Below, in pieces: positions 12,827-44,344 of a stretch of 64,000 nt of DNA. Below the pieces are notes generated by a model. The model worked only from the letters and a program-made list of their open reading frames with translations. It had not been told where the DNA came from and ran no database searches. Position 1 is the first letter of the stretch. Every line of letters begins with the position of its first letter. The stretch comes from Candidatus Hydrogenedentota bacterium (GTDB lineage: Bacteria; Hydrogenedentota; Hydrogenedentia; Hydrogenedentales; JAEUWI01): NCBI GenBank assembly GCA_034669905.1, contig JAXMOL010000030.1:1-64000 (forward strand). The letters run 5' to 3'. The translations under genes were made by a program, and so were the position numbers.

Positions 12827-13789
12827 TCAGCCTTTGGCCTGTTTTACGGCCTCGGTGAGCAGGGGACAAATCTCAAACAAGTCCCCCACGATGCCGTAAT
12901 CACAAATCTTGAAGATATTGGCCTGGGGGTCTTTGTTGATGGCGACGATAACCCGCGAAGTCCGCATGCCCGCCTGGTGCTGAATCGCACCGGAAATGCC
13001 ACAGGCCACATAGACATCGGGACTGACGACTTTGCCGGTTTGTCCGACTTGGTGGGAATGGTGAATCCATCCCGCATCCACCACGGCGCGGCTCGCCCCG
13101 AAGGCGGCTCCCATGGCGGTGGCGAGGGCTTCCACCACGGGCAGATGCTCGGGACCACCGACACCCCGCCCTGCGGACACGACGATCTTCGCCTCGGTCA
13201 GCTCGACGGTGCCCGTGGCCGCTTCAGCCGCTTCTTTCAACACGGTGCGCAACGATACCGAGGGCATATCCCGGTGTAGCACCTCCGGCGCCCCGTCGCC
13301 GGACCGTACGACGGCCGTCACATTGGGACGGAGGGAAAGCATGGCCGGCGAATCATTGATAATGACATCAGAGACCACCTTGCCGGCATAGACCGGCTTC
13401 GTCGCATGGACGCCATTTTCCCACCGGCATCCGATGGCATCCTGAACAAGCTCTACGCCCAGACGGGCGGCCACCGAGGCACACAACTCTTTTCCCAGGG
13501 CCGAGGCCGAGCCGATAATCACCGTAGCGCCCAGTTCTTCCACGAGGTCACGCACGATGGGAACATAGGCATCATTGGAATAGTGGCCGAGGTCGCTGTG
13601 CTCGTAGGCATAGACCGATTTAATGCCAAAGCCCTTTAGGTCGGCTGCCTGGTCGGCGAGGGATTGCCCGATGTATACCGCGTTAAGTTCCAGGCCCGAT
13701 GCCCGGGCGATCGCAGCGGCTGCCGTGGCAACTTCCAGGGCGCTGGGTTTCAACGTGCCCCGTTGCTCCAGTAACACCAATACACTCAT
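12827..13789 (-). CDS. etfA: Electron transfer flavoprotein subunit alpha
   Basis: GASRAVVDAGW, QVGQTGKVV, GISGAIQHQAGM, AINKDP motifs. Confidence 0.95.
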   Translation of the reverse strand: MSVLVLLEQRGTLKPSALEVATAAAAIARASGLELNAVYIGQSLADQAADLKGFGIKSVYAYEHSDLGHYSNDAYVPIVRDLVEELGATVIIGSASALGKELCASVAARLGVELVQDAIGCRWENGVHATKPVYAGKVVSDVIINDSPAMLSLRPNVTAVVRSGDGAPEVLHRDMPSVSLRTVLKEAAEAATGTVELTEAKIVVSAGRGVGGPEHLPVVEALATAMGAAFGASRAVVDAGWIHHSHQVGQTGKVVSPDVYVACGISGAIQHQAGMRTSRVIVAINKDPQANIFKICDYGIVGDLFEICPLLTEAVKQAKG

Positions 13790-13842
13790 CGATATGTCCT
13801 TGCTGATAGACGTTCACGATACGACACGAAAAGAATCGTGTT

Positions 13843-13926
13843 GTCATCCCTGCGAAGGCGGGGAGCCAGCCGTGTCGTGGGGGGTGATCTCGACTCTTCC
13901 TGGATCCCCACCTTCGTGGGAATGAC
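13843..13926. repeat. REP-like inverted repeat pair
   Basis: gtcatccctgcgaaggcggggagcca / tggatccccaccttcgtgggaatgac. Confidence 0.8.
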
Positions 13927-13993
13927 GTCGTGGCCCATCGCCCTATGTAAACGTATAGACTCGTTTGATTCGATTGTACGACCGGAGAATCGG

Positions 13994-14770
13994 CTAGAGA
14001 ACTTTTTCGTCTTCCTTCAGCACCTGCACCAAGGCCGCCACCTGGCTGGCACTGTCACCTTCCAGGAGTTTGTTCAGGCGCTCCTGGCGGGGCAGGCTCA
14101 TCTGGGTAACCGTCACCTTGGCGGCGAGGTCGGCGGCGTTGAGCCCCAAATCAACGAGGGACTTTTCATCCAGGGGCTTCTTCTTCGCCTTCATGATATT
14201 GGGGAGCTTGGGATAATCCGGTTTGTTGATGCCCTTTTCGGTGGTGAACACCGCGGGCAGGGGCACCTCTAAGGTGAGCAGTCCCCCCTCAATCTCCCGA
14301 TCCACCGTGGCGGTCGTGCCTTCGAGCGCAAAACGGGTGACCACAGACGCATGGGACCAGCCCAGCAACTCCGCGACCCGCTCAGGAATCTGAGAGCCGT
14401 CATCGTCTACGGCCTGCTTTCCGGCGAAGACGACATCGGGGGCTTCTTCGCGGACCACGGCGGACAGGGCCTCCGCAATACCGCGGTGCCCCAGGTTGCT
14501 GACCCCATCCCCCGTAATCAGGATGGCCCGGTCGGCACCCATGGCCAACGCGGTGAGCAGCTTTTCCTTGTCTTCGGGGGGGCCCAGGGTCACCACCACG
14601 ACATCGCCACCCGTCGCCCCTTTGAGGTTTACCGCTTCTTGCACGGCATGCTCATCGTAGGGACTCATGACGAATTTCAGGCGACTCGTATCGACGCCCG
14701 TTTGCGCCGTGTTGATCTCAAACACCGATGCCGTATCCGGCACCCGCTTAATCAGTACAACTGACTTCAC
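13994..14770 (-). CDS. etfB: Electron transfer flavoprotein subunit beta
   Basis: IKRVPD, ALAMGAD, AGKQAVDDD, REIEGG, IMKAKKKP motifs. Confidence 0.95.
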   Translation of the reverse strand: MKSVVLIKRVPDTASVFEINTAQTGVDTSRLKFVMSPYDEHAVQEAVNLKGATGGDVVVVTLGPPEDKEKLLTALAMGADRAILITGDGVSNLGHRGIAEALSAVVREEAPDVVFAGKQAVDDDGSQIPERVAELLGWSHASVVTRFALEGTTATVDREIEGGLLTLEVPLPAVFTTEKGINKPDYPKLPNIMKAKKKPLDEKSLVDLGLNAADLAAKVTVTQMSLPRQERLNKLLEGDSASQVAALVQVLKEDEKVL

Positions 14771-14828
14771 CGTTGCTCCTCCATTACCTCAACAGCCAGC
14801 CCCATCCCGCCGTGCTGCGACGGCCCCA

Positions 14829-15305
14829 TCAGTCCGATGGGTTGTCTTTTTCTACCCGACGCATGTACATGACCTTCCACTCGCCGGCCTGGCACACCTT
14901 ACCCCGCTGATTGGTCACCTTGATATCAAAGACAATCAGGCCCGAATCGGGTTTGCGTGTCGGATGCTTCTCTTTGACCGTTTGGGTCACCCGGATGGTG
15001 TCACCGATGAGAATCGGGCGCTTGAATTCCCACGAAATCCCCAACCAGGCAATCAGCATGTGCTGCTGTGCGCCGGGATTGCGGGTCACGAGACCGGAAC
15101 TGACCGACAGACCGAGCATTCCGTGGGCGATGCGCTGCCCGAAATGCATACTGGCTGCATACTCTTCGTCGGTGTGAATACGGTTGTAATCACCGGACAC
15201 ACCGGCAAAATTGACGATATCCGCCTCCGTGATGGTACGCCCGGGGGTGAGCGCACTGTCGTCCACATTCAGATCTTCGTAGTAGATACCGTCTACAGTT
15301 TCCAC
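14829..15305 (-). CDS. MaoC-family (hotdog) dehydratase
   Basis: RTITEAD...FAGVSGDYNRIH...IAHG motif. Confidence 0.9.
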   Translation of the reverse strand: METVDGIYYEDLNVDDSALTPGRTITEADIVNFAGVSGDYNRIHTDEEYAASMHFGQRIAHGMLGLSVSSGLVTRNPGAQQHMLIAWLGISWEFKRPILIGDTIRVTQTVKEKHPTRKPDSGLIVFDIKVTNQRGKVCQAGEWKVMYMRRVEKDNPSD

Positions 15306-15410
15306 GAAATACTCCTCTTATACCTGACACTAAGTCGGCCAGTGTAGCACTGGTACGGTGAACCGTCAACCCGGTGGCGTGGAAACGCCACAAAGCTTAT
15401 AAGCACGCTG

Positions 15411-16595
15411 CTACCGCGTGCCCCGATAGAACTCCGACAAGCCCCGGGCCAGGATACGGCCCGACTCCACATTCTCTTCTTTTGTATACAACGCACCGGC
15501 ACCTTCACAGAGAAAGCCCGAGATTCCAAATTGCTTGTGGGGACCGCCAGACCAATAGGTGCCATTGGCCTCATTGGTCCGCGCCTTCAACGGAATAATC
15601 AGCCCGGTGGGGTCGAGGCGATGCAAAATGGCCTCAAACTCCTCGACGGAGCCCACTTTCGTACCGAATTCCGGACCGGGACGCACCAGGGGTTCCACGT
15701 TGCCGCCCCAGGTGTGCATACTCCAGATGGAGGTCACCGGTGCCTCACCGGCCATGAGCCCTTCCAGATCTTTTTGTACCAGATAGGCTTCGTGGGCCTG
15801 CTTTTCTTCATCGGCACCACCCTCAAAATAGGAGCGGTTCATATCGATGCCCTGCTGATTCACGCGATACCAGCCATTGGAAGGTGCGTCGGGACTCATG
15901 AAGGGGACGACGTGAAATATCATTCGGTCGCGACAGTCCGCCCCCGCATCACTCAAAAGCCACTCCATCAGGCCGACGATGCGCCAGTGGGAATTGAACT
16001 CGCCCGGATGTTGGTTGGACACGTGGTGTACCCAGCGATTGGCCCGGGGCGTGGCGCTTTTTGCACCCGTGATTTCGAAGCGCCAGAGATCCCGGCCGCC
16101 GAGAGACGTGCCGAGCTTGACGGCCTGCACATCGGGGTGGGCTTCCCACTGCGCCTTGAACCGCAAGAAATCGTCGTAGGAAAACGGTACCTGATGCCCC
16201 ACATAGACGGTGTCTTCGGTGAAGGTAGGAAACACCAGCGTGTCATCGGTCTTGGAGCCCTTCCGCCCCTTCTCCCACTGCACGGGATGCCAGTTTACCT
16301 GGTCATAGGAATAGGAGTAGAAGTATTCGTTGAACTGATACGACCCGCCCACGGGGAAGGAAACGTCCAGCGTCAGATTGTTTCCCTTGGCATGACGCAG
16401 GATAGTGAACTGGGCCTTGTTCGACCAGGTCGGCTGGTTGGGGGCATGACCGAGGGTCATCTTGAAATGGTTGGTATCGACCGCCTCAATACGTGCCCCG
16501 GCGGAACCCAAGGGCCCCTCCACCGTGAAATCGTCTACCTCAAGCGTCTGTGCCCCACTGATAACCGCAAGACAAAGGGAAAGCAAAACAGACAT
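15411..16595 (-). CDS. M14-like zinc carboxypeptidase, exported
   Basis: QHPGE, DMNR, SMHT motifs; signal peptide. Confidence 0.75.
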   Translation of the reverse strand: MSVLLSLCLAVISGAQTLEVDDFTVEGPLGSAGARIEAVDTNHFKMTLGHAPNQPTWSNKAQFTILRHAKGNNLTLDVSFPVGGSYQFNEYFYSYSYDQVNWHPVQWEKGRKGSKTDDTLVFPTFTEDTVYVGHQVPFSYDDFLRFKAQWEAHPDVQAVKLGTSLGGRDLWRFEITGAKSATPRANRWVHHVSNQHPGEFNSHWRIVGLMEWLLSDAGADCRDRMIFHVVPFMSPDAPSNGWYRVNQQGIDMNRSYFEGGADEEKQAHEAYLVQKDLEGLMAGEAPVTSIWSMHTWGGNVEPLVRPGPEFGTKVGSVEEFEAILHRLDPTGLIIPLKARTNEANGTYWSGGPHKQFGISGFLCEGAGALYTKEENVESGRILARGLSEFYRGTR

Positions 16596-16702
16596 AACAG
16601 ACTCCTGAAGATGGTTTCGTAGGTGAAGCGCGCCATTATAGCGAAACTTTCACCCCGGTGCGACCCCGCCACCCCGAGGGCGGCGACGGGCATAGACCCG
16701 CG

Positions 16703-18574
16703 TCAGGCCGCCTTCTTCTCCTTCGCCTGCTGTTTTTCCATCCAATCCCGCCATTTCTTGATGTATTTATCCCGCCCTTCACCCGGTTTTGAACGGCCAA
16801 GTGGCGATTTGGGGTCCACATTCTGAATGCGTCCCGTCAGTTCATTGAGGGTAAATCCGAGGCGGGCCAACACGTAGGGCGCCGTTTCCTCACGAAACAG
16901 GGCAAACACGGTTTCCACCTGTTCCGGAGCCACCGTACGGGTCAGTCCGTAGGCCGCGCGCTCCCGGATCGCCGCCGCAGTATCCGTCGCCTTCAGGAGA
17001 TCGAGATAGAGTTGGGTCGCCGCTTCCGGATCACCGTGAAAGTGGAGGGCCCCAATCAAGGCGACGCGTGTATAGGAGTCTTGCCCGGAATCACGCACCG
17101 TCGCCACCACGGTTTCAGTAGCCGTCGGATCCATGGCAATTTCCAGGGCACGTGCAATTTCACGCCGAACATGCAAGTCGGCGTCATTCAGATAGGGCAA
17201 CAGGGATTCGGAGACCGTCGCGGAGCCAATTTGACGAATCGCGGTGGCAGCCGCCTGACGCAGCGCCGGGTCTTCTTCCGACAGGAAGGCCACGAGCTTG
17301 GGGGCCGCGGGCAGGTAGCTCATGCCGCCCAGCTCCACCACCGCCTCACGCAGCGCCTCCCCTTCGGCACCGTCGAGTTTCGCCATCACCGATTGGGGGA
17401 CAGCCTCATCCCGCCAGATCACGTGGTAGTCGATTTCGATGATGGCTTCCGTTTCTTTCGACCAGCAGAAGGTCCGGAACCATACCCGATCATCCCCCAT
17501 GTGGAAGACGGTGTAGGTGGGCTGGTCGTAGGGTTTGCCATGGTCATTTACCGCCGTGAACCAGTCGGGATAGTTGGCCCCAATGTCCCCGCCATTGACG
17601 AGGTAAAGGGTTCCCTTCTCATCGTCCCGCTTGCCGGCGCGAATCGAATGGAGCCGTTCGTAAATGTGGGTGTGCCCCGCCAGGTCCAAGGTCACATTAT
17701 GGCGATCCAGCGCATCCGCGAGGGGCTTGAAGGTAGAGGTCCCCATCTCCTTGCGCTTGTCGTTGGGGGACGCGTAACCGGTGCAATACACGGGGAAGTG
17801 GTGGGCCGCAATCTTCCATTGGGCATCTTGTTCCGGCAGATTTTTATCCAGCCATTCCACCGTCGCGGCACCGGCCGTCTGCTCAAAGGAAATAAGCGAA
17901 AAATGGGTGTTGCCCCACGTAAAGTCGGCAAAGGGCTCCCCGTCACCAGGCAGCTCATGGTATTGGGCAAACCAATCCTGCTCCGGGTCGAAGATCTGTG
18001 AGCCTTCGTGATTGCCCCGCGCCGTCACCATCCAGAGATGGTCGGTGAGGGTCTTGAAGCGGTCGAAATGCTCCGGCCACTGTTCGTACGTGTGCCCATT
18101 GGGAACCAAGTCCCCCATCGTGAGGTAAAACTCGGGCTTCCACTGTGCCGCGTGGGCCTGCATCTTTGTTTCTTCCCAACGATTGCTCCAACGGCGGGAA
18201 TCGCCAATCAACACAAAGGTGATGGGCCGGGCCGTCGCGGGTGCGGTGGTGAAGGTAGACTTTTGGACATCATCCCCACAACGGACTTCGTAGTGGTAGG
18301 TGCTCTCGGCCTTGAGTCCCGTTACGCGGACGCGATGGATGGTCGCCTCGGTTTCCCCGGAGGCCTTCATGCCGAGTGTGGCGTCCGTTCCATAGGCCAC
18401 GACGCCGACCTCGGGTTCTTTACTCTCCCAGATGAGGGTAACACTGTCCTGGGTTATGTTGTTCAGGTGGGGCGGGATGTAGAATGCTTGTTCGGCATGG
18501 GCCACCGCTCCCAGCATTCCCCACACCGCTGCCAGCAACAGACAACCGGCAGAAAAACGTGATGACAACAACAT
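16703..18574 (-). CDS. Purple-acid-phosphatase-type metallophosphoesterase with FN3-like N-domain and C-terminal HEAT-like repeats
   Basis: GDS, GDL, GNHE, GHTHIYER motifs; HEAT-like C-terminus. Confidence 0.85.
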   Translation of the reverse strand: MLLSSRFSAGCLLLAAVWGMLGAVAHAEQAFYIPPHLNNITQDSVTLIWESKEPEVGVVAYGTDATLGMKASGETEATIHRVRVTGLKAESTYHYEVRCGDDVQKSTFTTAPATARPITFVLIGDSRRWSNRWEETKMQAHAAQWKPEFYLTMGDLVPNGHTYEQWPEHFDRFKTLTDHLWMVTARGNHEGSQIFDPEQDWFAQYHELPGDGEPFADFTWGNTHFSLISFEQTAGAATVEWLDKNLPEQDAQWKIAAHHFPVYCTGYASPNDKRKEMGTSTFKPLADALDRHNVTLDLAGHTHIYERLHSIRAGKRDDEKGTLYLVNGGDIGANYPDWFTAVNDHGKPYDQPTYTVFHMGDDRVWFRTFCWSKETEAIIEIDYHVIWRDEAVPQSVMAKLDGAEGEALREAVVELGGMSYLPAAPKLVAFLSEEDPALRQAAATAIRQIGSATVSESLLPYLNDADLHVRREIARALEIAMDPTATETVVATVRDSGQDSYTRVALIGALHFHGDPEAATQLYLDLLKATDTAAAIRERAAYGLTRTVAPEQVETVFALFREETAPYVLARLGFTLNELTGRIQNVDPKSPLGRSKPGEGRDKYIKKWRDWMEKQQAKEKKAA

Positions 18575-18679
18575 GGACCTATCTCCTCACAAAAGTCGAT
18601 TCATCGCGGCTCAAGAACCCCCCGAGTATAACAAAAAGCGCACAAAACCGCTCGTTGCGGTAGCCGACATCTTGCGGTA

Positions 18680-20161
18680 GTGGAATCCCGCTCGGCATAC
18701 TGGGCGAATTGTCTACAGCCCCGGAAGGAATCACTCATGGTTGCATGTTGTCGTATCGTCATCGTGTGGGGCTTAGCGTGGGCTTCTGCCGTCCTCGCCG
18801 CGCCGCCCAATGTGCTCTTCATTATCTCCGATGACCTCAGTGCCGAGGCGCTGTCAAGCTATGGCAACGTCCAGTGTAAAACGCCCCACATCGACCGGCT
18901 GGCTGAGAAGGGGGTTCGTTTTACCCGGGCCTATTCCCAATACCCCGTCTGTGGTCCTTCCCGTGCCGCCCTCATGTCCGGCATGTATCCGCCCGCCCTT
19001 GGCGTGATGAGCAACGGCGGCTCCGACCACTTCACCGAACGCCTTGGCACACGGCCCTCCCTCGCACAGCATTTCAAATCCAGCGGTTACTACACCGCGC
19101 GGGTGAGTAAGATTTATCACATGCGTGTGCCCGGCGATATCACGGCCGGGGTCGACGGGCCGGACCACCTCGCCTCGTGGACCGAGCGTTTCAACTGCCA
19201 GGGCCCCGAGTGGATGAGTAAAGGCACCCACGAACATTGGACGAATGAGAAGCTCAATCGGGACCCCAACAAGCACTATGGCCTGGGCTTCGGCGGGGCC
19301 TTCTATGTGGTGAAGGGCGACACGGATGGCGCGGAGCAGCCCGACGTGCAGGCGGCCACGAAGGCCATTTCGTTGCTGGAAGCCCACCAGGAAAAGCCCT
19401 TCTTCCTGGCTGTCGGTTTGGTACGGCCTCATGTACCGCTGGTGGCACCGGCGGCCTATTACGACCCCTACCCCGCCGAAGCGATGAAGTTGCCCGCCCA
19501 GATTCCCGGCGACTGGGACGACATTCCCAAAGCGGGCATTACCAAAAACAGCGCCGCTATCGGCATGGACACCGCCGAATCGAAGCAGGCCGTGCTCAGC
19601 GCCTACTATGCGTCGGTCGCCTTCATGGATGCTCAGGTAGGTCGCATGGTGGATGCGCTGGACCGCTTGGGACTGCGGGAGAATACCATCGTGGTCTTCA
19701 CGAGCGACCATGGCTATCACCTTGGGGAGCACGAGTTCTGGCAGAAGATGAGTCTCCACGAAGAGTCCGTGCGCATCCCGCTGATTATTAATGCCCCGCG
19801 GACGGCCCCTGCGGTGACCGACAGCCTCGCCCAGCAGATTGACCTCTACCCCACCCTCGCGGAACTGGCGGGGCTGGAAACGCCTGACCATCTCCAAGGG
19901 AGGAGCCTCGCCCCCGTACTGAAATCGCCCGACACGGTGGTTCATGAGGCGGTCTACACCTGCATGCGCAAAGACCACCTCCTCACCACGAAGCGCTGGT
20001 CCTACATCCGCTACGGAGACGATACCGAAGAATTGTACGACCTGGAGAAAGACCCGCGACAGTTTTTTAATCTGGCCGGGGAGGCCGCCTATGGGGATGT
20101 GCTGGATGGACTACGCCAACAGCTGGAGGCGAAGCGGACGGCCATGGCATCTTCGAAGTAG
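18680..20161 (+). CDS. Sulfatase (iduronate-2-sulfatase-like)
   Basis: PNVLFIISDD, CGPSR, RPHVP, SDHGYHLGEH motifs; start probably 18737. Confidence 0.9.
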   Translation: MESRSAYWANCLQPRKESLMVACCRIVIVWGLAWASAVLAAPPNVLFIISDDLSAEALSSYGNVQCKTPHIDRLAEKGVRFTRAYSQYPVCGPSRAALMSGMYPPALGVMSNGGSDHFTERLGTRPSLAQHFKSSGYYTARVSKIYHMRVPGDITAGVDGPDHLASWTERFNCQGPEWMSKGTHEHWTNEKLNRDPNKHYGLGFGGAFYVVKGDTDGAEQPDVQAATKAISLLEAHQEKPFFLAVGLVRPHVPLVAPAAYYDPYPAEAMKLPAQIPGDWDDIPKAGITKNSAAIGMDTAESKQAVLSAYYASVAFMDAQVGRMVDALDRLGLRENTIVVFTSDHGYHLGEHEFWQKMSLHEESVRIPLIINAPRTAPAVTDSLAQQIDLYPTLAELAGLETPDHLQGRSLAPVLKSPDTVVHEAVYTCMRKDHLLTTKRWSYIRYGDDTEELYDLEKDPRQFFNLAGEAAYGDVLDGLRQQLEAKRTAMASSK

Positions 20162-20320
20162 GCGAAGAGACTAGTCGTGCCACGTCCACGACGCGCCACG
20201 GGGAAAAGTACCGAACCCATCTGCTATATACCTTTACAACGCGAACACTTTCACCCTTCCAAACGCAAATCTCGCACGTATTTTCTAGCGGGACAACTCC
20301 GTCTCCTCGGACCTTATCTG

Positions 20321-20983
20321 CTACTTGGCCGCCCGCTCAACCGCTTCCCGGGCCGTTACGAAGCCCTCCATGCGCTCGCGCCCCAAGATGGCTTCCAAAC
20401 GGTCCAGCAATTCCAGGAAACGACCGTGGTCGGCATATTCACCGAATGCCCATTCGGACGCCAGAAAGTGATCGTGACGATATTCGCTGCCGTCTTGGAG
20501 CAAGAAGTTCAGCTGAACGACCGGGGTCGATTCCTCCACACCGGGTTGCTGCATCAGCTGCTCCGAAAGGGAGAGGCTCTTCACGTCCTCCTCCGTGAAA
20601 CGAACCGTTTCTGTAACGGGCATTGCCACGTTCTCTCGGTAGGCGTAGGGCCGTGTGGAATCTACCCGAACCCGGAATCTGTCTTCAAAGCAGAGATAGT
20701 AAAGACTGTCAATTCGCAGCGCAACGGGTACCGGAAATACCGAAAGCCACACGGCAGGCCAATATATCCAAATCGCAACAGGAACTATCAGCGCCCAGAG
20801 CAATGAGAATTCAGACGCAAGCGCTACAAACGCCACGAGAAGAATGGCCACAATGCGAACGATACTACTCCCCCGCTTAAAAAATCCGTGCCAACTGGGA
20901 TCCCCCCACGTCATCGGACCATAGTCGATTCGACTCCCCCAAAACTCTTCCGGCGGATTATTCTTGTCCCACGGTTCAGGCAT
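20321..20983 (-). CDS. Hypothetical membrane protein
   Basis: Two TM segments and a soluble C-terminus; start uncertain (ORF track extends to 21085). Confidence 0.55.
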   Translation of the reverse strand: MPEPWDKNNPPEEFWGSRIDYGPMTWGDPSWHGFFKRGSSIVRIVAILLVAFVALASEFSLLWALIVPVAIWIYWPAVWLSVFPVPVALRIDSLYYLCFEDRFRVRVDSTRPYAYRENVAMPVTETVRFTEEDVKSLSLSEQLMQQPGVEESTPVVQLNFLLQDGSEYRHDHFLASEWAFGEYADHGRFLELLDRLEAILGRERMEGFVTAREAVERAAK

Positions 20984-21256
20984 ATGCCCCCCTTTCACTG
21001 TTTCGAGATAGGGCAATATACCACGAATTGGCAATAGAATCGCCCCGTCTCGAACCGGTGGCCGTCGTTGACCTGCGGGGGCCATAGGCGAAACACTATA
21101 TTCGTAGACGTGGCACGAGGAAATTACTCAACCCATACGCTGTGTGTTCTGAATCTATAACCCGCCCGGGTTTTGTTCCCCCACCCCATGCCTGTAGAAT
21201 GGGCCCCGAAGTGAACGCGAGGAATCGCACCCCCTTACCTGCGGAAAGAGTTTCTT

Positions 21257-22606
21257 ATGCCAACCTATTGCCGGTATCTGATGAGCCCGTGGCACCTGCG
21301 CCCCCTGTTGGCAGTAGCCCTCGTGCTGCTGCCCCTATGCTTCGCAAGCCTCACCGCGCAGGGACAGGTAGCAACACCGGCCGACGCCACGACGGTCGCC
21401 TCGGCCGAAAGGGTCCACGAGCCGGTGCCCGTACCCCAGGCCGATGAACGCACCATGCAACGCTACCGCTCGGGCAATGTGCTCTGGTTTGGCTCCCAGT
21501 TGATGGGACTCGGCCTCCCCCTGCTCTTCCTCTTCACCGGCTGGTCGGCCCGCATTCGTGACGTGGCCACCCGCTGGGGCAAGAAGTGGTTCTTCATCGT
21601 CGTTTTCTACTTCGTCCTCCTTTCGCTGGCCATGGCCATCTTCGAATTGCCCTGGGCCTTTTATACGGAATACATCCGGGAGCATGCCTATGGCCTCTCC
21701 AACCAGACCCTGACGAAATGGATTACGGACACGGTCATTTCCCTGACCATCGGCCTCTTCATCGGCGCGTTGATTATCTGGATTCCCTACCTCCTGCTGA
21801 AAAAGAGTCCCAAGCGGTGGTGGCTCTACACCGGCATGCTCATACTTCCCTTCCTCATTCTCCAGGTCTTCATTACGCCCATCTGGATCGCCCCTCTCTT
21901 TAACGATTTCGGACCCATGAACGACAAGGCCCTGGAAGCGAAAATACTCGCCCTGGCCGAGCGCTCGGGCATCGAAGGGGCCCGGGTCTTTGAAGTCGCC
22001 AAGAGCGAAGACACCAAGGCCGTGAACGCCTACGTGACGGGATTTGGCGACACGAAGCGCATTGTCCTGTGGGACACGGCCATCGAAAAGTTGGCGGAAG
22101 ACGAGCTGCTCTTTGTCATGGGCCACGAGATGGGCCACTTCGTGATGAACCACGTAGTACGCTTTATCGCCATCGCCTTCTTCGTCACCTTCGCCTCCCT
22201 CTACCTCATCCATCGCCTCTCCGGCGCGCTTATACGCCGCTACGGCACGCGGTGGGGATTCACGGAGCTTTCCGACGTGGCCTCTCTCCCTCTCATCATG
22301 GTCATGATGGGGGCCTTCACGCTCATCGTCATGCCCCTTATCTATGGCGTGACCCGTTACCACGAACACGAAGCAGACCGATTCGGACTGGAACTCACCC
22401 ACCTCAACCACGCTGCAGCCACCGGCTTTGTCACCCTGCAGAAAGAAAACCTCGCCAACCCTGACCCCGGCTGGGTCTATATGCTCTTCCGCAGCAGCCA
22501 CCCCAGCATCGCCCAGCGCATCCGCTTCTTCAACAGCTACCGGCCCTGGGAATCGGGCGAATCCCTGAAATATGAACACCTCTTCAGCAGCCCGGAGACG
22601 CCATAA
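21257..22606 (+). CDS. M48 (Ste24-like) membrane metalloprotease
   Basis: NAYVTG, HEMGH, EHEAD, SHPSIAQRI motifs; multiple TMs. Confidence 0.92.
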   Translation: MPTYCRYLMSPWHLRPLLAVALVLLPLCFASLTAQGQVATPADATTVASAERVHEPVPVPQADERTMQRYRSGNVLWFGSQLMGLGLPLLFLFTGWSARIRDVATRWGKKWFFIVVFYFVLLSLAMAIFELPWAFYTEYIREHAYGLSNQTLTKWITDTVISLTIGLFIGALIIWIPYLLLKKSPKRWWLYTGMLILPFLILQVFITPIWIAPLFNDFGPMNDKALEAKILALAERSGIEGARVFEVAKSEDTKAVNAYVTGFGDTKRIVLWDTAIEKLAEDELLFVMGHEMGHFVMNHVVRFIAIAFFVTFASLYLIHRLSGALIRRYGTRWGFTELSDVASLPLIMVMMGAFTLIVMPLIYGVTRYHEHEADRFGLELTHLNHAAATGFVTLQKENLANPDPGWVYMLFRSSHPSIAQRIRFFNSYRPWESGESLKYEHLFSSPETP

Positions 22607-24485: not shown

Positions 24486-24876
24486 GTGACCTGGTTCGTG
24501 CCGCGCCATATCGAGGAAGGCTGCTTCAAGCGCCTGGGTTGCGAGGTGCATCCTGATGACCGAAGGTGCGCCAAAGTGGGTTGGCCTTCCAGGCTGACAA
24601 AATGTGCCCACGATTCACCCGGTAGCGTGAGGTTCTGAAACGTCCGCTATCCGCTCCCGAGGTAGTTGCCTACGTAGGCACCCGGCTCCTGCGGATAGTT
24701 GGAGCGAGCGACATGACAGGTCGCTGACGCGCCGGAGGCGGGCTGGAAGCCTATCCCACTTTGGAGGCTGCCGGTACTGTCGCGTTTCATTTGCTATGTG
24801 ATGTCGGCCACTTCGAGGACCAATCCGTCCCGTTGCCGGGTCCTTCTTCATCCACGCAGCACGATACAGGGCATTC

Positions 24877-27248: not shown

Positions 27249-27302
27249 TATATTGGTCGGGGTGGTAGGATTCGAACCTACGGCCCCCTGCTCCCAAAGC
27301 AG
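27249..27302 (-). repeat. att site: duplicated 3' part of tRNA-Pro (54 bp)
   Basis: Identical to 37354-37407 (tatattggtcggggtggtaggattcgaacctacggccccctgctcccaaagcag). Confidence 0.96.
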
Positions 27303-27904: not shown

Positions 27905-28063
27905 GGATTTGGTCCTTTCGTCTCGGCTCCAGCCCCCCCGGGGGGACTAACAGTGCAACAAATACCCGCAGTGCGTCGTCTGACCGACCTCTACCCTCCC
28001 CCGGGGGGGGACCCGTCGCCTTTTGGGGCGCTCAGGCCCCCCGATCCGGGGTGTTTCGTGGCC

Positions 28064-28537
28064 TCACGCGGTCGGTGTGGCCATGGTTCGTGCGGTTTGG
28101 CCCTGGTGGCAGGGTGCGCCATGCACGGGATGGGGTGCGCGGGCCTTCTGCACGGTGCGGGCTTCCAGTGCACGTAACCGCTCGCATGGCTCTATCGGTT
28201 CAAGGGCCAGATCCAGCGCGGCGGAATTGGTCGCCCTCATTCCATGGACCAGGTACAGCGCCACGATACGGCGTGTGCGTGCTACCCCATCCAAGCCCAG
28301 CGCCACGGTGACCACCTGGGCCATGCGCCTATGCTGTTCGCCTCGGTTACGGCTCGCCTGCCTTGCGAGGTACCAGGCGGCCTTCAGGCGGTCTTGAAGT
28401 TGTTCCCGTGTCGGGGCCCCGCCATCGACCGGGAAAGAGTCATGGAAGGCAACCAGGGCGTCTTGGGCTTCGGGCGATATCTGGTGTTTGCACTCTTCGA
28501 AGTGTTGGATCACTTCCTCACGGCTTCGAAAGTTCAT
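28064..28537 (-). CDS. Hypothetical protein
   Basis: ATG overlaps the rep stop (TGATG at 28535-28539), preceded by GGAGGT. Confidence 0.6.
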   Translation of the reverse strand: MNFRSREEVIQHFEECKHQISPEAQDALVAFHDSFPVDGGAPTREQLQDRLKAAWYLARQASRNRGEQHRRMAQVVTVALGLDGVARTRRIVALYLVHGMRATNSAALDLALEPIEPCERLRALEARTVQKARAPHPVHGAPCHQGQTARTMATPTA

Positions 28538-29734: not shown

Positions 29735-31336
29735 CTACAGGACTTCACGGGCCTGTGCGGGGTTTCCCCCTGGGTTTCGCTGATTGGAGCCCTTACCGGC
29801 CGATTTCAGGGCCGCCGTGTTTTCCCTGAGCGCTTGGGTCATTTCTCCCACCCCCTCCTTCAGGCCCTCGGTGTCAACGGGGAATTCAGCACGGGCCGCT
29901 TCCACATCGAAGGTCCGGGCACGGGTGGCCTTCAATCGCTCCAATTGTGCGGGGGAATACGTGCCGGCATTGTATGGCGAATTATTCTCGAGTCGCTCCA
30001 AGTCCCGTTGCCTGCGGAACTCAAACAGATCCCGCAACATTTCATCGCGCAGCGGGCCCGGCGCCGTGTTTCGGATTTCACCAATGCGGCCGCGCTCGAG
30101 AGTCTGCCGGCTCCCTATACCGCCCAACACACGACCAAAAAATGCACCCCAGCTATTCTGGTCTTCGCCCGTGTGCAGCTGCACAGCCAGGGCACCAAGA
30201 TCCTGATTTCGGGAGAATTTCGAAAGCATAGTTTGCGGGGCTGTGTCGTTGGCAATGTTTGGGGCGTTTTCCCGGAGTTTTGCATTGATCGCATTCAGTT
30301 CCTGCATTTTCGTGACCGGGTCTTCCAGGCGCTTGGCGATAATTTCCACCGCCTTGCTCGTGTCGCCTGAAATTTTCCCAAGGTCCTCGATAGACCCGGA
30401 AACTTCGTCAATGCTGGAAGCCAAATTTTGAGCCGTGACAATACTTTGCTTGCCGAACAAGTCGATCATCTCGCCCTTGCTGGACTTGAAAAGCTCTTTC
30501 AGCTGGACCAGCTTTTCTTGATAACTTCCCGTCAGTTGGATGCCCTTCTTCTGGGCCTCCTCCATGATCAGGAAAACGTTTCGTAGTCCGGTGAAGGTTT
30601 TCTCAATGGAGCCGGTTTTGAGGGTGGACCCAATCACCGTGCCCAACACCTCGTCAAGGGTGACGCCCACCACGTCCCCCGCACTGGCTAATTCAGGAAG
30701 CCGTGTTGCCAGGTCTTCAAAGCTCAGGCGTGCCTTGTCCTGGGTGTACATAAGTTTGTTCAAAAGCTCGGTGACGTTCTCCACTTCCCCGCCATAGATC
30801 TGGTATGAGGAAGTAAGCAGGTTTTGGGCGGTTACCAGGTCACCCCCCGTGGCCTTCGAAAGGTCTTTCATAGCCTGCCCGAGATCCCCTCGTACCGCAT
30901 CGGAAAGGTTCCCGGTGCCGGATGTCAGATCAAACAGTGCCTGGGCTCCTTGGGCCGCTGTCACATCCAAAGCCGACGACAGCAACACGACCTCCCTACG
31001 CAACCGGGCCAGATCGCCGGCGTTGTCGCCCAGACTCGAAAGAGGTACGATCGCCTTTTCGAGTTCGAGCTGCTTAGCATCGATGGCCTGGGCGGTCTGA
31101 TTGACTTTGCCCAACCCGGCGGCCGCTGCCCCAAGTCCGGCCAGGCCTGCCACGCCCATTAATACACTGCGCCCCAAGCCTTTCATAGTCATGGCGGTCG
31201 CTTGGCCTTCCCGGCGCAAACCGCGCATGCCGTTCCGGGTGTCGCGAAACACGGCTTTGGTAGTTGCCCGCACTCCGGACGTATTGCCCGTTTCAAAATT
31301 CATTTTGACAGTAGTGTCGCCCTTGGACGTACTCAT
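29735..31336 (-). CDS. Phage tail tape-measure protein (TP901-like core)
   Basis: 533 aa, Ala/Gly/Leu-rich and helical; AQALFDL.SG, LSKATGGDL..AQNLL, SFEDLA..LP.LA..G..VGV.LDE, TGLRNVF pattern. Confidence 0.8.
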   Translation of the reverse strand: MSTSKGDTTVKMNFETGNTSGVRATTKAVFRDTRNGMRGLRREGQATAMTMKGLGRSVLMGVAGLAGLGAAAAGLGKVNQTAQAIDAKQLELEKAIVPLSSLGDNAGDLARLRREVVLLSSALDVTAAQGAQALFDLTSGTGNLSDAVRGDLGQAMKDLSKATGGDLVTAQNLLTSSYQIYGGEVENVTELLNKLMYTQDKARLSFEDLATRLPELASAGDVVGVTLDEVLGTVIGSTLKTGSIEKTFTGLRNVFLIMEEAQKKGIQLTGSYQEKLVQLKELFKSSKGEMIDLFGKQSIVTAQNLASSIDEVSGSIEDLGKISGDTSKAVEIIAKRLEDPVTKMQELNAINAKLRENAPNIANDTAPQTMLSKFSRNQDLGALAVQLHTGEDQNSWGAFFGRVLGGIGSRQTLERGRIGEIRNTAPGPLRDEMLRDLFEFRRQRDLERLENNSPYNAGTYSPAQLERLKATRARTFDVEAARAEFPVDTEGLKEGVGEMTQALRENTAALKSAGKGSNQRNPGGNPAQAREVL

Positions 31337-31534
31337 TCACTTCCTTTCAGTTTCGCGCCAAACTTGCGCTACGTATTTCCAAAATCCCAAACGCTCACGG
31401 CCATCGCGGGCGGTCTTGCAGAACTGGTCAGCACGGGCTGTTTTGTCTGCCCATCGCTTCGACGTGGCCGCGATCCAGTCCAGCCAGGGCCGGGGCAGTC
31501 GCCACAGGATGGCCTCAACAATCTTCCAGAGCAT
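31337..31534 (-). CDS. Small Trp-rich basic hypothetical protein (65 aa)
   Basis: ATG coupled to the upstream stop (TGATG at 31532-31536); its stop abuts the TMP start. Confidence 0.55.
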   Translation of the reverse strand: MLWKIVEAILWRLPRPWLDWIAATSKRWADKTARADQFCKTARDGRERLGFWKYVAQVWRETERK

Positions 31535-31984: not shown

Positions 31985-33130
31985 CTATTGACCCACGCTT
32001 GCCCAACCGGCGCGGTGGTCGATGGTGGTACCACCGAAAACGCTCTTGACCTTCCAGGTCAGCACGTCGGATTGAATCCAAGCGGCATTTGAGGATCCCC
32101 GGTCAGGCACGGTCACCTGGGGGAAGTCGTACCCGGCGAGGGTGCCGAACTCACCGGCGGGAATATTCGCCGGATCCGTGAACAGCGCCCACGAGGTCGC
32201 TCCTTTCGTACCGGAGGTCACGAGGGACGGGATCCACGGGTTGACCAGCAACTGAATGTTGAGGTCCGCAAGCACGTTACGGGTGCCCATCCGTTCTGGG
32301 GTTCCGCTACCAGACCCCGAAGTATCCACGGGATAAACGAGGTTGATGGAGTTGAGGATTTCCATGGCAAGCAACTGCAGGGCGGGGGGCACCATAAGGT
32401 ACTTGGGTTGTGCCACGATGGGATCGCCGTCCGGGTCGGTATATGCGAGCATTTGACCAACCGCGGTGCGCAGATTCTCCACGCTCAAGGGAAGCGAGGA
32501 TACCCCGCTTGGCTGGGCATCAAAGAACGCGTCAACCGGGCCGTCTGCACCGAAATACAGGGAGCTCAAAAACGCTTCTAGCGTCCTAATCAGGGCACGG
32601 GCCATACGCATTGGCATGGTCTCGAATACCCGAACGGGGTCATTCGCCAGGGCCTCTTCGGTCGCCTGAAATAAGGCACCGTACTTGATGACTTTGTAGG
32701 TGTCGGTCTGGCTTTGCTCCAAACTGATCTGCCCATACTCGGCACCCTCCCGAACAATAGGAAGGGTGGTCTCCAGGCCATCAAAGCGGATAGCCTCAAC
32801 AGGTCCGAATGTGGGGATCCCTCGGCGCACCCGGACGATGTTTTCCATGACGCGGGGCGTGTGAGTGTACAGGGCTTGCAGTTCGCGGGCGGTCACGTCG
32901 GCAGTGAGAAGCGCAGCGCTCCCGGTGGTGGTGGCAAAACATTGCCGAATGCGTTCAGCACGACGGCGAGGATCGCCACCATTGCCAAAGAGCAGATCAG
33001 CGGCGGCGGCCAGTTCCGCTTCAGAGAATTGGCTCTGTCGCCGGGCATCCTCGGCGGCCCATCCTTGGGCGAGTTCTAAAAGTTCAGGCATTACGACGGG
33101 TCTCCTTAGGAGGTTTTGATCTTCACGCAA
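31985..33130 (-). CDS. Major capsid protein (Mu gpT-like, HK97 fold)
   Basis: VREGAEY, KYGALFQATEEALAND, PKYLMVPPAL, WKVKSVFGG..IDHR; start may be 33090. Confidence 0.85.
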   Translation of the reverse strand: MREDQNLLRRPVVMPELLELAQGWAAEDARRQSQFSEAELAAAADLLFGNGGDPRRRAERIRQCFATTTGSAALLTADVTARELQALYTHTPRVMENIVRVRRGIPTFGPVEAIRFDGLETTLPIVREGAEYGQISLEQSQTDTYKVIKYGALFQATEEALANDPVRVFETMPMRMARALIRTLEAFLSSLYFGADGPVDAFFDAQPSGVSSLPLSVENLRTAVGQMLAYTDPDGDPIVAQPKYLMVPPALQLLAMEILNSINLVYPVDTSGSGSGTPERMGTRNVLADLNIQLLVNPWIPSLVTSGTKGATSWALFTDPANIPAGEFGTLAGYDFPQVTVPDRGSSNAAWIQSDVLTWKVKSVFGGTTIDHRAGWASVGQ

Positions 33131-33531: not shown

Positions 33532-34577
33532 CAGGTTCCTTTCTTCGCGGCCGATTCGGCCATTTTGCGGGCGGTGGCTTCGGGAAATCCGAGTCGCTGA
33601 AACCGGCCAAAAAACACATCTTCCAGTTGCCCCGGATTGGGCGCACGGCCCGGATATTCGCGGGGCTCAGCGGACTCCAGTTGAATCTTTTCTGATTCGG
33701 CCTCAAGCTCGAGCAGCAAATTGCTTCGTTCGCTCAACGCGATCAGTTCTTCCAAAAAATCATCGTAGGCCATGCCGGTTTCAATGGCATGGAAGGCAAA
33801 CCCGTTCGGGTGTTTCTTCGTGCTCTGGAAGTGCTGAGGCTTGCACTTGGACAGCATCTTCGTGATGCGGTCCCGCTCTGCCATGACGGCAGCTGGAACG
33901 TCTCCCCCGTCTGGCTTGTGGTGGGGCCCAACATTAAGGCCTAGAACTTTTGCTTGGTGGTTCAGGGCCACTTGGGCGCGCTCCACGAAGTCCGGGTTCT
34001 GCAGGGCTTTGCGGAGCCCCACCATAAGATCGGCGGAAAATTGTAGTCCCTCGATGGGCTGGGCGAATAGGCCATCACCCGACGCGGGTTCGTCGACCAG
34101 GTCAACCGCATGCAGGGCATCGACCCGAAGCACTGGCAACAGGGGCGCCCCGCCATCGTCGAACCCTTCACGCTCCACGATGTCAGCACTGACCACCATA
34201 CTGCTACCCAGCATTGTGGGGTGGTCCGTGGCCATACGCTGGATGTGCGCAAGCATGGCCGGGTTGCTCGCATCGCTCAGATGCAGATCAGCCAATACAT
34301 AATCGCCCGCTCTTCGGAAGTTTTGACGCACTCCGCAAAATGTGCCCAGCGAGTCGGTACACATAGACGGGTGCCCAAAGCGGGACTTGATCCCATCGGG
34401 CGCGGCGTTGCCTAACGCTACAACCTGCTCGAGGGTGGTTTCGTCGATGATTACCCCGTGACCAGTGGCAGGGCCCAGCATACAAATTTGTGTGCCGTGC
34501 AGGATGCCGGGTGCATCGCTGTTCGGCTTCATGGCACCCGTGGGCAGGGCTGGCGTCTCGAAAGTGAAACGGGTCAT
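33531..34577 (-). CDS. Putative prohead protease with scaffold-like C-terminus
   Basis: KSRFGHP, ADLHL, LGSSMVV, LHAVDLVDEPA motifs; position before the decoration and MCP genes. Confidence 0.7.
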   Translation of the reverse strand: MTRFTFETPALPTGAMKPNSDAPGILHGTQICMLGPATGHGVIIDETTLEQVVALGNAAPDGIKSRFGHPSMCTDSLGTFCGVRQNFRRAGDYVLADLHLSDASNPAMLAHIQRMATDHPTMLGSSMVVSADIVEREGFDDGGAPLLPVLRVDALHAVDLVDEPASGDGLFAQPIEGLQFSADLMVGLRKALQNPDFVERAQVALNHQAKVLGLNVGPHHKPDGGDVPAAVMAERDRITKMLSKCKPQHFQSTKKHPNGFAFHAIETGMAYDDFLEELIALSERSNLLLELEAESEKIQLESAEPREYPGRAPNPGQLEDVFFGRFQRLGFPEATARKMAESAAKKGT

Positions 34578-35251
34578 TCAGCAGCGGCCTCCAGGGCGTC
34601 ACGTTTGCTCTGGGCTACCTGTCCGGCAAGGAACTGTGCCGAGTTTTCGAAACTCGGGATCGGCGTCACAAACCGCCCGCATTCGCCCCAAAAATCAGGC
34701 CAGCCATCCGTGCCAGTCACAGCGGCCAGTGCGATTTGAGCGAGTTCCAGCGGGTCGGTGAAGGCCTGCCCGGCGTCAATCGTGGTTAAAGCGTCGTAAA
34801 ATTGTTGGCGTGGTTCTTCGCACGCCCAATCCCGAACCCACCCATCGAGGGCGACGGCGAGCAATTCTCGATAGAGGGCTTTCTCCAGACTCCACGACGC
34901 GGCCGTCTTCAAATTAACAATTCGGCTCAATGTCGCCGGGTCCACTCCCAAGCGTCTGGCGAGTTCCCGCTGTCGAATTCCAAGGGCCGATGCGGCCATT
35001 TTGAATCGGATCGCGGAAACCTCCTTCGCGGCCTGCAGTCGCCACTCAAGGGCAAACGGCCCATGCGGGTGGCCTGATTCGATGGCGGCCCGGTTAACCG
35101 CATCCTGGGCCGCGCCGGCCTTTTGGCCGAACGGACTCGTTGCGGTCAGTCCAACAACGGCGTTTGGGAAGGTCTCCCGGAAAATTTCCAAGTCAGTCAT
35201 AAATCGCCTTTCAAAGTGATCCGTATCATTGGCTCGTGCAATTTGTACCAA
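34574..35251 (-). CDS. XRE-like HTH regulator
   Basis: LGIRQRELARRLGVDPATLSRIVN; ATGA overlap with the protease gene; start may be 35200. Confidence 0.75.
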   Translation of the reverse strand: MVQIARANDTDHFERRFMTDLEIFRETFPNAVVGLTATSPFGQKAGAAQDAVNRAAIESGHPHGPFALEWRLQAAKEVSAIRFKMAASALGIRQRELARRLGVDPATLSRIVNLKTAASWSLEKALYRELLAVALDGWVRDWACEEPRQQFYDALTTIDAGQAFTDPLELAQIALAAVTGTDGWPDFWGECGRFVTPIPSFENSAQFLAGQVAQSKRDALEAAAE

Positions 35252-35287: not shown

Positions 35288-35369
35288 ATGTGAAATATAT
35301 TTCCGTTTTCAATGATTAATTTTTGGCCTGTTCCACATTGGAACCCAAAAACAGAAATATATTTCACAT
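35288..35369. promoter_or_regulatory. Pair of palindromic operator-like sites
   Basis: GAAATATATTTC at 35292-35303 and 35354-35365, within a 16-bp inverted repeat in an AT-rich intergenic region. Confidence 0.65.
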
Positions 35370-35553: not shown

Positions 35554-35886
35554 TTATTCGGCAGTGCTCAACCGCCGCATTCCCCGCATGGCAGGGGACC
35601 GAAAGCGATCACGGGTACGCGTCAGGCGGTGCCCACATTTAATGCACTTTGTGGGTGCAACATAACCCGAATTGATATGTTCCGAATCAGACACCCCGGG
35701 CATATTCAGTTTCCCGCACGCGGAGCACGTCCGCAGCGCGCTTTCACAGTCAGTTACACCTCGAGCCTGTCGGGCTTTGTGGCCCAGTTCGTTGGCGAGG
35801 TAGTCCGCCAGGCTTTTCCCGGCTTCCTTGGCCTGGGCCTGGAAGGTGGTTGCATTCTGTTCGCTCAGTTCGATACTTACTCGCAT
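35554..35886 (-). CDS. Ribbon-helix-helix-like N-terminus plus Zn-ribbon protein
   Basis: MRVSIELSE...AKEAGKSLADYL; CSAC and CIKC motifs. Confidence 0.6.
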   Translation of the reverse strand: MRVSIELSEQNATTFQAQAKEAGKSLADYLANELGHKARQARGVTDCESALRTCSACGKLNMPGVSDSEHINSGYVAPTKCIKCGHRLTRTRDRFRSPAMRGMRRLSTAE

Positions 35887-37193: not shown

Positions 37194-37358
37194 TGGGCCG
37201 GTCCAGGATCAGTAATCTGGTGGTGGGACTGCTCTTGACAGGTATCCACGGTACGACTCCCGTTTTCCGGGTATATACCCGAAAAACCGTTGTAGTGTCG
37301 CACCGCCAATGCTGGCGGGTAACCTGTCTAAGTGACTGATTCGACTGGATTTGTATAT

Positions 37359-37436
37359 TGGTCGGGGTGGTAGGATTCGAACCTACGGCCCCCTGCTCCC
37401 AAAGCAGGTGCGCTAACCGGACTGCGCCACACCCCG
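37359..37436 (-). tRNA. tRNA-Pro (TGG)
   Basis: CGGGGTGTGGCGCAGTCCGGTTAGCGCACCTGCTTTGGGAGCAGG...GTTCGAATCC...CCCCGACCA cloverleaf with CCA end. Confidence 0.97.
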
Positions 37437-43639: not shown

Positions 43640-43683
43640 GTTCTGGTAGCCGTTGACATACCGGAAACATGGGGACCGCACAA

Positions 43684-44043
43684 ATGACAGAATACTTAAA
43701 AGCTCTCTGTGCACTCGGAGACAGCCGTCGATTCATACAGAAAATGCCGGAATCAGTTCGTCGTCAACTCGGGTATACGCTCTTCCAGGTCCAATCCGGC
43801 AATTCACCCAGAGGTCTTCAAGAATTGAAAGGGTTTTCTGTCGCCGTACAGGAAATACGATTGCGACATGATAAAGAGTCCTATCGGGCGATCTTTACCG
43901 TGGCGCTCGGAAATACGGTATACTTACTACACGCGTTCCATAAGAAGTCCAAGAGTGGTATTGCTACACCCAAACACGAAATTGAAATAATTCGAAAAAG
44001 GCTTAAAGAGGCGGAACGGCTGGAGGCAGAACGAAATGGATAG
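43684..44043 (+). CDS. RelE/HigB-like (Gp49/DUF891) toxin
   Basis: EIR...SYRAIF...VYLLHAFHKKSKSGIATPKHEI motif; start uncertain (ORF track 43669). Confidence 0.85.
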   Translation: MTEYLKALCALGDSRRFIQKMPESVRRQLGYTLFQVQSGNSPRGLQELKGFSVAVQEIRLRHDKESYRAIFTVALGNTVYLLHAFHKKSKSGIATPKHEIEIIRKRLKEAERLEAERNG

Positions 44044-44344
44044 TTCAGAATCTATCTATAACATTTTTGAAACGTTGGGCCTTGAGAATGCCGAAGCGCT
44101 CATGGCCGTCTCCGTGCTGGCTTCCAAAATAGTTAAAGCGAAAGAAGCCCGTGGTCTTTCCGACACCGAAGCCGCTGAATTGGCCGGTTGCACACCGATG
44201 CGAATCGACCAGATTTGCCGCGCGGACTTGGACGGGTTCACGATTGACGAACTGTGCCGCTACCTCGTCTCACTCGGGCAAAATGTCCATATAGCGGTGG
44301 AATCTTCCGATGCAAGCGGAGCGCACCTGCGCGTGGTGGGATAA
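44036..44344 (+). CDS. XRE/HigA-like antitoxin
   Basis: NIFETLGL, HTH region, FTIDEL..YL..LG; overlaps the toxin stop. Confidence 0.8.
   Translation: MDSSESIYNIFETLGLENAEALMAVSVLASKIVKAKEARGLSDTEAAELAGCTPMRIDQICRADLDGFTIDELCRYLVSLGQNVHIAVESSDASGAHLRVVG

Follow-up and report, generated by a model that had tools for sequence, protein, structure and literature searches.

A tape-measure protein gene closes a conserved head-gene module in a satellite-like element of Hydrogenedentota

We analysed a 64,000-nt stretch of DNA (the window) from a Candidatus Hydrogenedentota bacterium (contig JAXMOL010000030.1) and found that the minus-strand gene at positions 29735-31336 encodes a real phage tape-measure protein (TMP) that is under selection and stands at the end of a structural gene module. 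The module is part of a 10,105-bp integrated element flanked by perfect 54-bp attachment (att) direct repeats, one of which lies inside a tRNA-Pro(TGG) gene. We consider it probable that this element is a phage satellite that makes its own small shell, relies on a cos-type siphophage for portal, terminase and tail parts, and replaces the TMP of that helper with its own.

The TMP gene is a single unbroken reading frame of 533 amino acids (aa). Residues 120-293 match PF10145 (PhageMin_Tail) at E 8.9e-11, with 42.5 bits against a curated cut-off of 33.2, and the protein matches several tape-measure PHROGs, the best being phrog_28 (E 6.7e-14). An AlphaFold model built with 70 homologues in the alignment is all-helical (mean pLDDT 87), and a Foldseek search against viral models returned tape-measure or minor tail proteins as its named top matches; against solved structures the model gave nothing at E<=0.001. 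A scan of the host genome with PF10145 and phrog_28 found no other match to either profile. An earlier note on this DNA had read the gene as a TMP-like open reading frame (ORF) and had proposed a search against the PhageMin_Tail/TP901 family; the intact frame and the match above cut-off bear out that reading. It had also placed the gene between an excisionase-like gene and rep, with no recognisable tail tube, chaperone or baseplate neighbours. The rep gene does lie downstream, but a 65-aa ORF separates the excisionase-like (xis-like) gene from the TMP gene. Among 14 ORFs of the element scanned with Pfam and PHROG, we found no match to portal, terminase, tube, chaperone or baseplate families, and no neck genes were recognised. 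The note's description of the gene as isolated did not survive, as it closes a conserved module of protease/scaffold, cement, capsid and TMP genes.

All genes of the element share one strand, in the order integrase, 110-aa ORF, XRE-type regulator, protease/scaffold, cement, capsid, xis-like, 65-aa ORF, TMP, rep, 157-aa ORF, a non-coding block and a zinc-finger/SAP-like gene. The element has what is expected of a satellite: it is small and att-flanked, with an integrase, a regulator and a replication gene. We surveyed 135 genomes of the phylum, including eight others of the host genus. The TMP gave strong matches in two of those eight (G069 and G066) and one weak match elsewhere in the set. The G069 element (L009) is 10,548 bp long between 55-nt repeats at a tRNA-Val gene and has the entire layout in common with the focal element; its att repeats are 96% identical, those of the focal element 100%. 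The G066 element (L010) spans ~10.95 kb between 23-nt imperfect repeats. Its integrase gives no tblastn match to the focal integrase, its replication genes differ, and its zinc-finger gene precedes the module instead of following it. The order protease-cement-capsid-small ORF-TMP is identical in both, and alignment places the XRE gene immediately upstream of the head module in all three elements. Those L009 and L010 ORFs that were scanned gave no match to a portal, large terminase, head-tail adaptor or connector; the same incomplete virion gene set is conserved in 3/3 elements, whose similar sizes suggest a capsid-volume limit. One capsid match and one TMP match lie on contigs that are both 8,967 long, a weak hint of a fourth copy of the module. 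With 11 element proteins as tblastn queries, no second copy turned up in the host genome.

The TMP reading frame is intact in all three elements, and the proportion of nonsynonymous differences (pN) is 0.39-0.44 against 0.75-0.82 for synonymous ones (pS). Since synonymous sites are saturated in all three TMP pairs, dN/dS cannot be expressed as a number; at the level of codon positions, identity is 60-64% at second and 28-33% at third positions. The protease gene shows a similar pattern and the capsid gene is more conserved (capsid identity 61-68% to L009/L010, 34-35% to prophage capsids in L020/L021). Frameshifts or relaxed selection in related elements, which the earlier note had looked to as evidence against its reading, are not what these comparisons show. 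Because the module is intact in three elements with saturated synonymous sites, it is under purifying selection and not decaying. These data bear on whether the element is a decayed prophage, with portal, terminase and tail genes deleted and the TMP a leftover. The head genes and the TMP do stand in phage order, excision was not seen in four contig-only sequencing runs, and decay does occur in the family: genome G068 (L022:10485-13512) has a 2.9-kb remnant at a tRNA-Leu gene with a broken capsid fragment, 56-73% identical. (The remnant also carries two unrelated cargo ORFs.) But the same genes are missing and the same genes intact in 3/3 elements at different sites, with saturated synonymous sites; L010 has another integrase and replicon; and the att repeats are 100% and 96% identical. 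Losing and keeping the same genes three times is not what deletion debris looks like, and we regard this explanation as very unlikely.

The 348-aa protein at the start of the module matches no Pfam or PHROG family itself. We assign it as a prohead protease because its L010 homologue matches the head maturation protease family phrog_15531 (E 1.7e-6), and because His69 and Ser126, which we take to be the catalytic pair, are retained in 3/3 elements. Sequence searches of the PDB with the protease and the capsid returned nothing relevant.

The 65-aa ORF overlaps the stop codon of the xis-like gene and stops one base short of the TMP start, and its homologues abut the TMP gene in L009 and L010 too. 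Leave-one-out hidden Markov models of this ORF recovered each of the three copies (E 2.6e-13, 3.6e-14 and 1.6e-5, with six-frame decoys). It has no Pfam or PHROG match, and its profile found nothing at E<0.9 in 18 other phage or satellite loci, nor does it resemble the chaperone of the candidate helper type described below. Across the 135 genomes, the profile detected the three elements and one weak match (E 0.005). Because the ORF stays beside the TMP gene even in L010, where no xis-like homologue was found, we infer from gene position only that its product is the strongest candidate to act as partner of the TMP. The xis-like protein also lacks resemblance to the helper-type chaperone, and either of the two proteins may be a chaperone of new sequence.

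We compared the length of the TMP with those of its relatives. A protein search gave 28 matches including the query, 457-706 aa long, most of them lacking genomic context. A profile search collected 146 clusters at E<=1e-30: the 30 closest proteins are 522-706 aa (median 642), and among 132 more distant ones 125 are at least 400 aa, with a median of 623 aa, and 33 are at most 533 aa. A narrower alignment matched seven IMG/VR loci, all in tail-gene contexts, where complete TMPs measure 504, 500, 732 and 710 aa; prophage TMPs in the phylum are 550, 549 and 481 aa (the latter two remote, E ~1e-11). Among complete siphophage tail operons, the TMPs closest to ours measure 500, 504, 550, 710 and 732 aa. 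The earlier note had called the protein short and proposed a short, satellite-specific tail. With relatives in tail operons at 500-732 aa and a clade median of 642, 533 aa is normal for the subfamily, and on these lengths we dropped the idea of a shortened tail. A satellite-specific tail as such is still the best reading and has a precedent in the PLEs of Vibrio cholerae (PMC12987554). In that system, a 95-aa TMP difference equals 10 nm of tail (PMC12987554), by which 533 aa would make a tail a few nm longer, not shorter, than 500 aa. A tail built on the satellite TMP could match that of the helper in length or exceed it.

A quick tree of 48 rows, which leaves out four remote TMP-like proteins and the loci L040 and L041, groups the three element TMPs in a single 23-row clade (SH-aLRT 99), and all seven phage-context TMPs in the tree fall outside it. 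Both ends of the protein are conserved in this clade and insertions of up to ~170 aa occur in the N-terminal helical part, as expected of a ruler. A C-terminal motif occurs in 31 of the 36 closest proteins, 1/132 others and 0/9 phage-context TMPs, counted in the same proteins from which it was derived.

Two features of the protein would also suit an internal ejection or pilot protein, carried in the head or belonging to a tailless or short-tailed particle: residues ~85-340 are modelled as a confident compact helical unit, and residues 58-76 form one hydrophobic Gly/Ala-rich stretch (mean hydropathy 1.8) that could enter a membrane. The operon otherwise holds only head genes, and among published small elements that have an HK97-fold protein but neither portal nor tail genes, one has a TMP-annotated ORF (PMC13669383). 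Models of phage TMPs are similar, however, relatives of the protein sit in true tail operons behind tube and chaperone genes, and a cos-like site in the element (below) points towards packaging by a portal and terminase. We judge this role to be improbable.

The element has one conserved non-coding block, 87 nt long and the sole non-coding match between the focal element and L009 besides the att end. Its opening heptamer recurs in the corresponding gap of 3/3 elements, 110, 121 and 191 bp before the zinc-finger gene. The same heptamer sits 30 nt before the right end of lambda, where we take it to be cosQ, and 121 bp before terS in prophage G081. cosQ is described as a highly conserved 7-bp site (PMC4669245). 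A two-element cos pattern searched across the 135 genomes found both of its sources and one match in G026, against two matches for controls, and found nothing in IMG/VR. By its likeness to these sites, the block is a putative lambda-type cos site. In all three elements, the zinc-finger/SAP gene occupies the terS/rpp position behind the cos-like block. Its four cysteines are invariant and it has no TerS family match; its position suggests a role in packaging.

A candidate helper type emerged from complete phages L044 and L045, which carry relatives of the TMP at 29-32% identity and of the protease at 34% and 31%, the latter as the gene between portal and cement. The L044 portal is lambda-type. 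The product of a 300-aa gene in these phages has a two-domain fold like that of the T5 tail tube (Foldseek E 5.9e-8) and also resembles the P74-26 tube. The next gene closes with a poly-A run, where a -1 frame is conserved at 5/5 loci, a pattern that we take to mark G/GT chaperones. The tube family is present in 5/135 genomes (four of which were in the alignment) and the GpA terminase in 12/135, with both in four. More broadly, L007, L038, L040, L041, L044 and L045 represent a siphophage type in which portal and terminase are lambda-like, the tube is T5-like with two domains, the frameshifting chaperone has 230-300 aa and the TMP 480-550 aa; its tube and chaperone have no informative PHROG match. 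The capsid of the element resembles those of L020/L021, whereas its TMP and protease resemble those of L044/L045, which makes the module a mosaic. The TMP, its close alignment and the capsid matched nothing in IMG/VR, and no GenBank phage matched the TMP. A further locus from a metagenome scan, L008, was dropped as a weak match (E 8e-5) in an unrelated-looking, chemotaxis-type context.

Besides the element, the host chromosome contains a phage-derived cluster (G000:C50 ~13100-21800; L039:1121-9815, minus strand) with counterparts in L079-L083. It encodes a Mu-like portal, a protease-like protein, two unknowns, cement, capsid, an adaptor-like protein and Dit; beyond these come an unknown, then an SNase-domain protein, and last a structural-like protein with a small ORF behind it. 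We saw neither an integrase or terminase nor a TMP or tube in the cluster. The cluster is syntenic in 5/5 other genomes fetched, one of them from another order, with portals 63-80% and capsids 65-88% identical, and PF25209 matches in 113/135 genomes of the phylum, most likely the cluster capsid (checked in six). It looks like a phylum-wide domesticated particle, possibly akin to a gene transfer agent, and our literature search found no paper on it. Could this cluster be the helper, lacking a TMP that the satellite supplies? It has no TMP match in the host or in the other genomes fetched, and in the host genome PF10145 and phrog_28 match nothing but the element TMP. Yet neither unit has a recognisable tube or terminase, the cluster portal is Mu-like and not lambda-like, and the two head modules are dissimilar (best E 0.058), making this the least probable arrangement of those weighed here.

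For a satellite dependent on a cos-type siphophage, the reading we prefer, we propose a course of induction, shell assembly, cos cutting and TMP incorporation. Infection by the helper would lead to excision and Rep-driven replication. The protease/scaffold, capsid and cement proteins would build a P4-sized shell around the helper portal, and the lambda-type terminase of the helper would cut at the cos-like block, to which the zinc-finger/SAP protein may direct it. Neck, tube, G/GT chaperones and tail tip would come from the helper, and the chaperones would load the satellite TMP, which would template a chimeric tail of ~80 nm (at 0.15 nm per residue, the figure of the earlier note), about the helper's own length. 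The 65-aa protein is the leading candidate for a factor that favours the satellite TMP over the helper's. The benefit is likely an injection apparatus and tail supply of the satellite's own, not a shorter tail.

Several observations weigh against this scheme. We found no helper for the element, only a candidate type. The host genome (95.7% complete) gave no terminase with PF05876, PF03237, phrog_15, PF03354, PF04466 or PF17289, and no lambda-type portal, and the eight other genus genomes have neither the GpA terminase nor the tube family. In four low-depth contig-only runs from one study, which may be the source of the window, the depth of the element was similar to that of its flanks and no att joint was seen, though contigs of this kind show presence and not absence. 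The short cos pattern is not significant alone, being present in 24/100 shuffles; among ten GpA loci, the heptamer before terS is clear in one, a variant in one and missing from 195 nt in one, and in the other seven the needed stretch is absent or holds other genes. The capsid is nearer to the L020/L021 prophage type (34-35%) than to the proposed helper type, and its fit to the helper portal is a prediction. The satellite TMP is only ~30% identical to any phage TMP seen, none of which has its C-terminal motif. Known context is limited to three members of the TMP clade, all of one genus. Finally, the element has no recognisable chaperone gene, unlike PLEs, which pair tmp with one (PMC12987554).

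Some of these points would also suit a TMP that acts purely as a decoy, soaking up helper chaperones or tail tips and spoiling helper tails, while satellite heads use ordinary helper tails: lacking its own chaperone, the element would be in competition for that of the helper, the C-terminus is unlike that of any phage TMP seen, and interference with tail assembly is a known defence (PMC11364771). But the protein is kept under selection at full TMP length, both ends included, and spoiled tails would cost an element that itself lacks tail genes. In PLE11, moreover, a separate 80-aa protein interferes and the TMP is structural (PMC12987554). We therefore think a pure decoy unlikely.

TMP-carrying satellites are already in print, namely PLEs, EPIPs, some cf-PICIs and F5 satellites, and we compared the element with the accessible descriptions of each. 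Like the element, PLEs are integrated satellites with their own TMP, which is ~20% identical to the helper's; the PLE TMP is built into chimeric tails, its deletion lowers transduction by 96-99.9%, and PLE11 has a small extra protein, Rta (80 aa), that acts on tail assembly (PMC12987554). PLEs differ in using a helper capsid and a contractile tail in a Vibrio host (PMC12987554), where the element has an own capsid gene and a likely non-contractile helper; this comparison is by description, not protein sequence. EPIPs of Mycolicibacterium aichiense are closest in gene content: they are ~11 kb, list scaffold, major capsid and TMP, and have portal, large terminase and tube outside the listed genes (PMC12822802). 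Electron microscopy of EPIP particles shows small heads and tails of altered length (PMC12822802). EPIPs also list a small terminase, adaptor, stopper and serine integrase (PMC12822802); here we find a tyrosine integrase, protease, cement and Rep, no neck genes, and a host of another phylum. The cf-PICIs share an own capsid and protease, integrase-regulator-replication genes and the lack of a tail tube (PMC10085698), and some encode a putative TMP (PMC12987554), but they are defined by a portal, large terminase, head-tail adaptor and connector (PMC10085698), none of which was found here. Gram-negative cos-PICIs carry a copy of cos and, ~100 bp later, a DNA-binding gene in the terS position, and are packaged by the lambda-type terminase of the helper (PMC9026076), as we predict for the element. 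Their Rpp is a winged-helix protein homologous to TerS (PMC9026076), in contrast to the zinc-finger/SAP-like protein of the element, which adds an own shell and TMP. F5 satellites of coliphage SUSP1 have a TMP and, as described, no tube, portal or terminase, and differ in having a baseplate gene and no capsid genes (10.64898/2026.10.15.759431). In the literature searched (subscription journals, figures and preprint supplements lay outside it), we found no description of this element family, which apparently is undescribed: the concept is published, the combination and the host are new. There is a modest chance that an own shell around a borrowed portal, a cos mimic with a zinc-finger/SAP adaptor, a TMP swap without an own chaperone and a 65-aa selector make up an undescribed class.

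Table 1 Features of the element and its integration site in the window.
Feature	Position	Strand	Basis
att core, far copy, 54 bp	27249..27302	.	same 54-bp direct repeat
Zinc-finger + SAP-like DNA-binding protein, 152 aa	27446..27904	(-)	PF02037 E 4.9e-5, just under cut-off
Conserved non-coding block, putative cos-type packaging site	27941..28027	(-)	87 nt, 76% to L009, E 1.5e-11
157-aa ORF, no assigned function	28064..28537	(-)	ORF between rep and non-coding block
Replication initiator Rep, 334 aa	28537..29541	(-)	phrog_9474 E 6.6e-14; 44% to L009
Tape-measure protein (TMP), 533 aa	29735..31336	(-)	PF10145 and TMP PHROGs, AlphaFold model, Foldseek
65-aa ORF, candidate TMP partner	31337..31534	(-)	conserved in 3/3 elements
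Excisionase-like helix-turn-helix protein, 109 aa	31534..31863	(-)	weak: DUF1580 E 4e-4
Major capsid protein, likely start ATG 33091	31985..33130	(-)	PF25209 E 1.2e-31
Capsid cement/decoration protein, 141 aa	33106..33531	(-)	PF09956 E 5.2e-12; phrog_122
Prohead protease with scaffold-like C-terminus, 348 aa	33531..34577	(-)	L010 homologue; conserved His/Ser
XRE-type helix-turn-helix regulator, likely start ATG 35200	34574..35251	(-)	PF01381 E 6.5e-6
22-bp inverted repeat, gap before XRE gene	35288..35369	.	arms 95% complementary
110-aa ribbon-helix-helix/zinc-ribbon-like ORF	35554..35886	(-)	weak Pfam matches only
Tyrosine integrase, 382 aa	36045..37193	(-)	PF00589 E 1.5e-16; 58% identity to L009 integrase
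att core, tRNA-side copy, 54 bp	37354..37407	.	100% direct repeat, spacing 10,105 bp
tRNA-Pro(TGG), integration target	37359..37436	(-)	ARAGORN

Among the remaining features of the element, the xis-like assignment draws on the L009 homologue, which matches the excisionase family phrog_66 (E 1e-3). The 157-aa ORF has no family match, no Atlas match and no tblastn match in L009 or L010, where an ORF behind rep in L009 resembles it as judged by eye only; Atlas searches with the zinc-finger protein likewise gave no usable match. The 110-aa ORF has no tblastn match in L009 or L010. The 22-bp inverted repeat before the XRE gene is a possible operator, and a promoter scan gave matches at chance level. 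Elsewhere in the window, numerous contigs in each of the four runs break off at positions 24560-24740, which is what a dispersed repeat element should produce, and 43669-44344 hold a two-gene pair that we take, from its sequence, to be a RelE/Gp49-type toxin with a helix-turn-helix antitoxin.

Other small loci in the phylum carry TMP-like genes. Genome G091 (L023:11416-20000 and L024:1-3800) has a second satellite-like element of ~12.3 kb with 46-nt repeats at a tRNA-Lys gene. It encodes an integrase interrupted by an insertion sequence, xis-like and XRE proteins, a protease-capsid fusion (649 aa), a TMP-like protein (499 aa), a neck-like protein and a primase, with no match to a portal, terminase or tube. 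L028 (G109), L042 (a second element in G069) and L043 (G096) are small contexts, all limited by contig ends, with a TMP-like gene of 500-540 aa and no tube. In L028, this gene occurs with a primase, a ClpP-type protease and a cos-like heptamer; in L042, it lies beside an integrase-like ORF and its product ends in the C-terminal motif of the focal clade; in L043, it stands behind terS-like and neck-like ORFs. The TMPs of these three loci have their relatives among other phage TMPs, suggesting that capture happened more than once.

Host defences target TMP, which also helps to determine the route of injection (PMC13190303), so a satellite with an own TMP could gain entry to cells in which its helper is blocked. 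Lacking core components of the cf-PICI model (PMC10085698), namely portal, terminase and neck, such elements are likely to be filed as broken prophages. Proof of TMP piracy is so far known only from Vibrio PLEs, and the study of these satellites states that the way in which their TMP displaces that of the helper is unknown (PMC12987554). A minimal version that evolved independently, in a distant and uncultured phylum, would narrow the candidates to the TMP and the 65-aa gene beside it.

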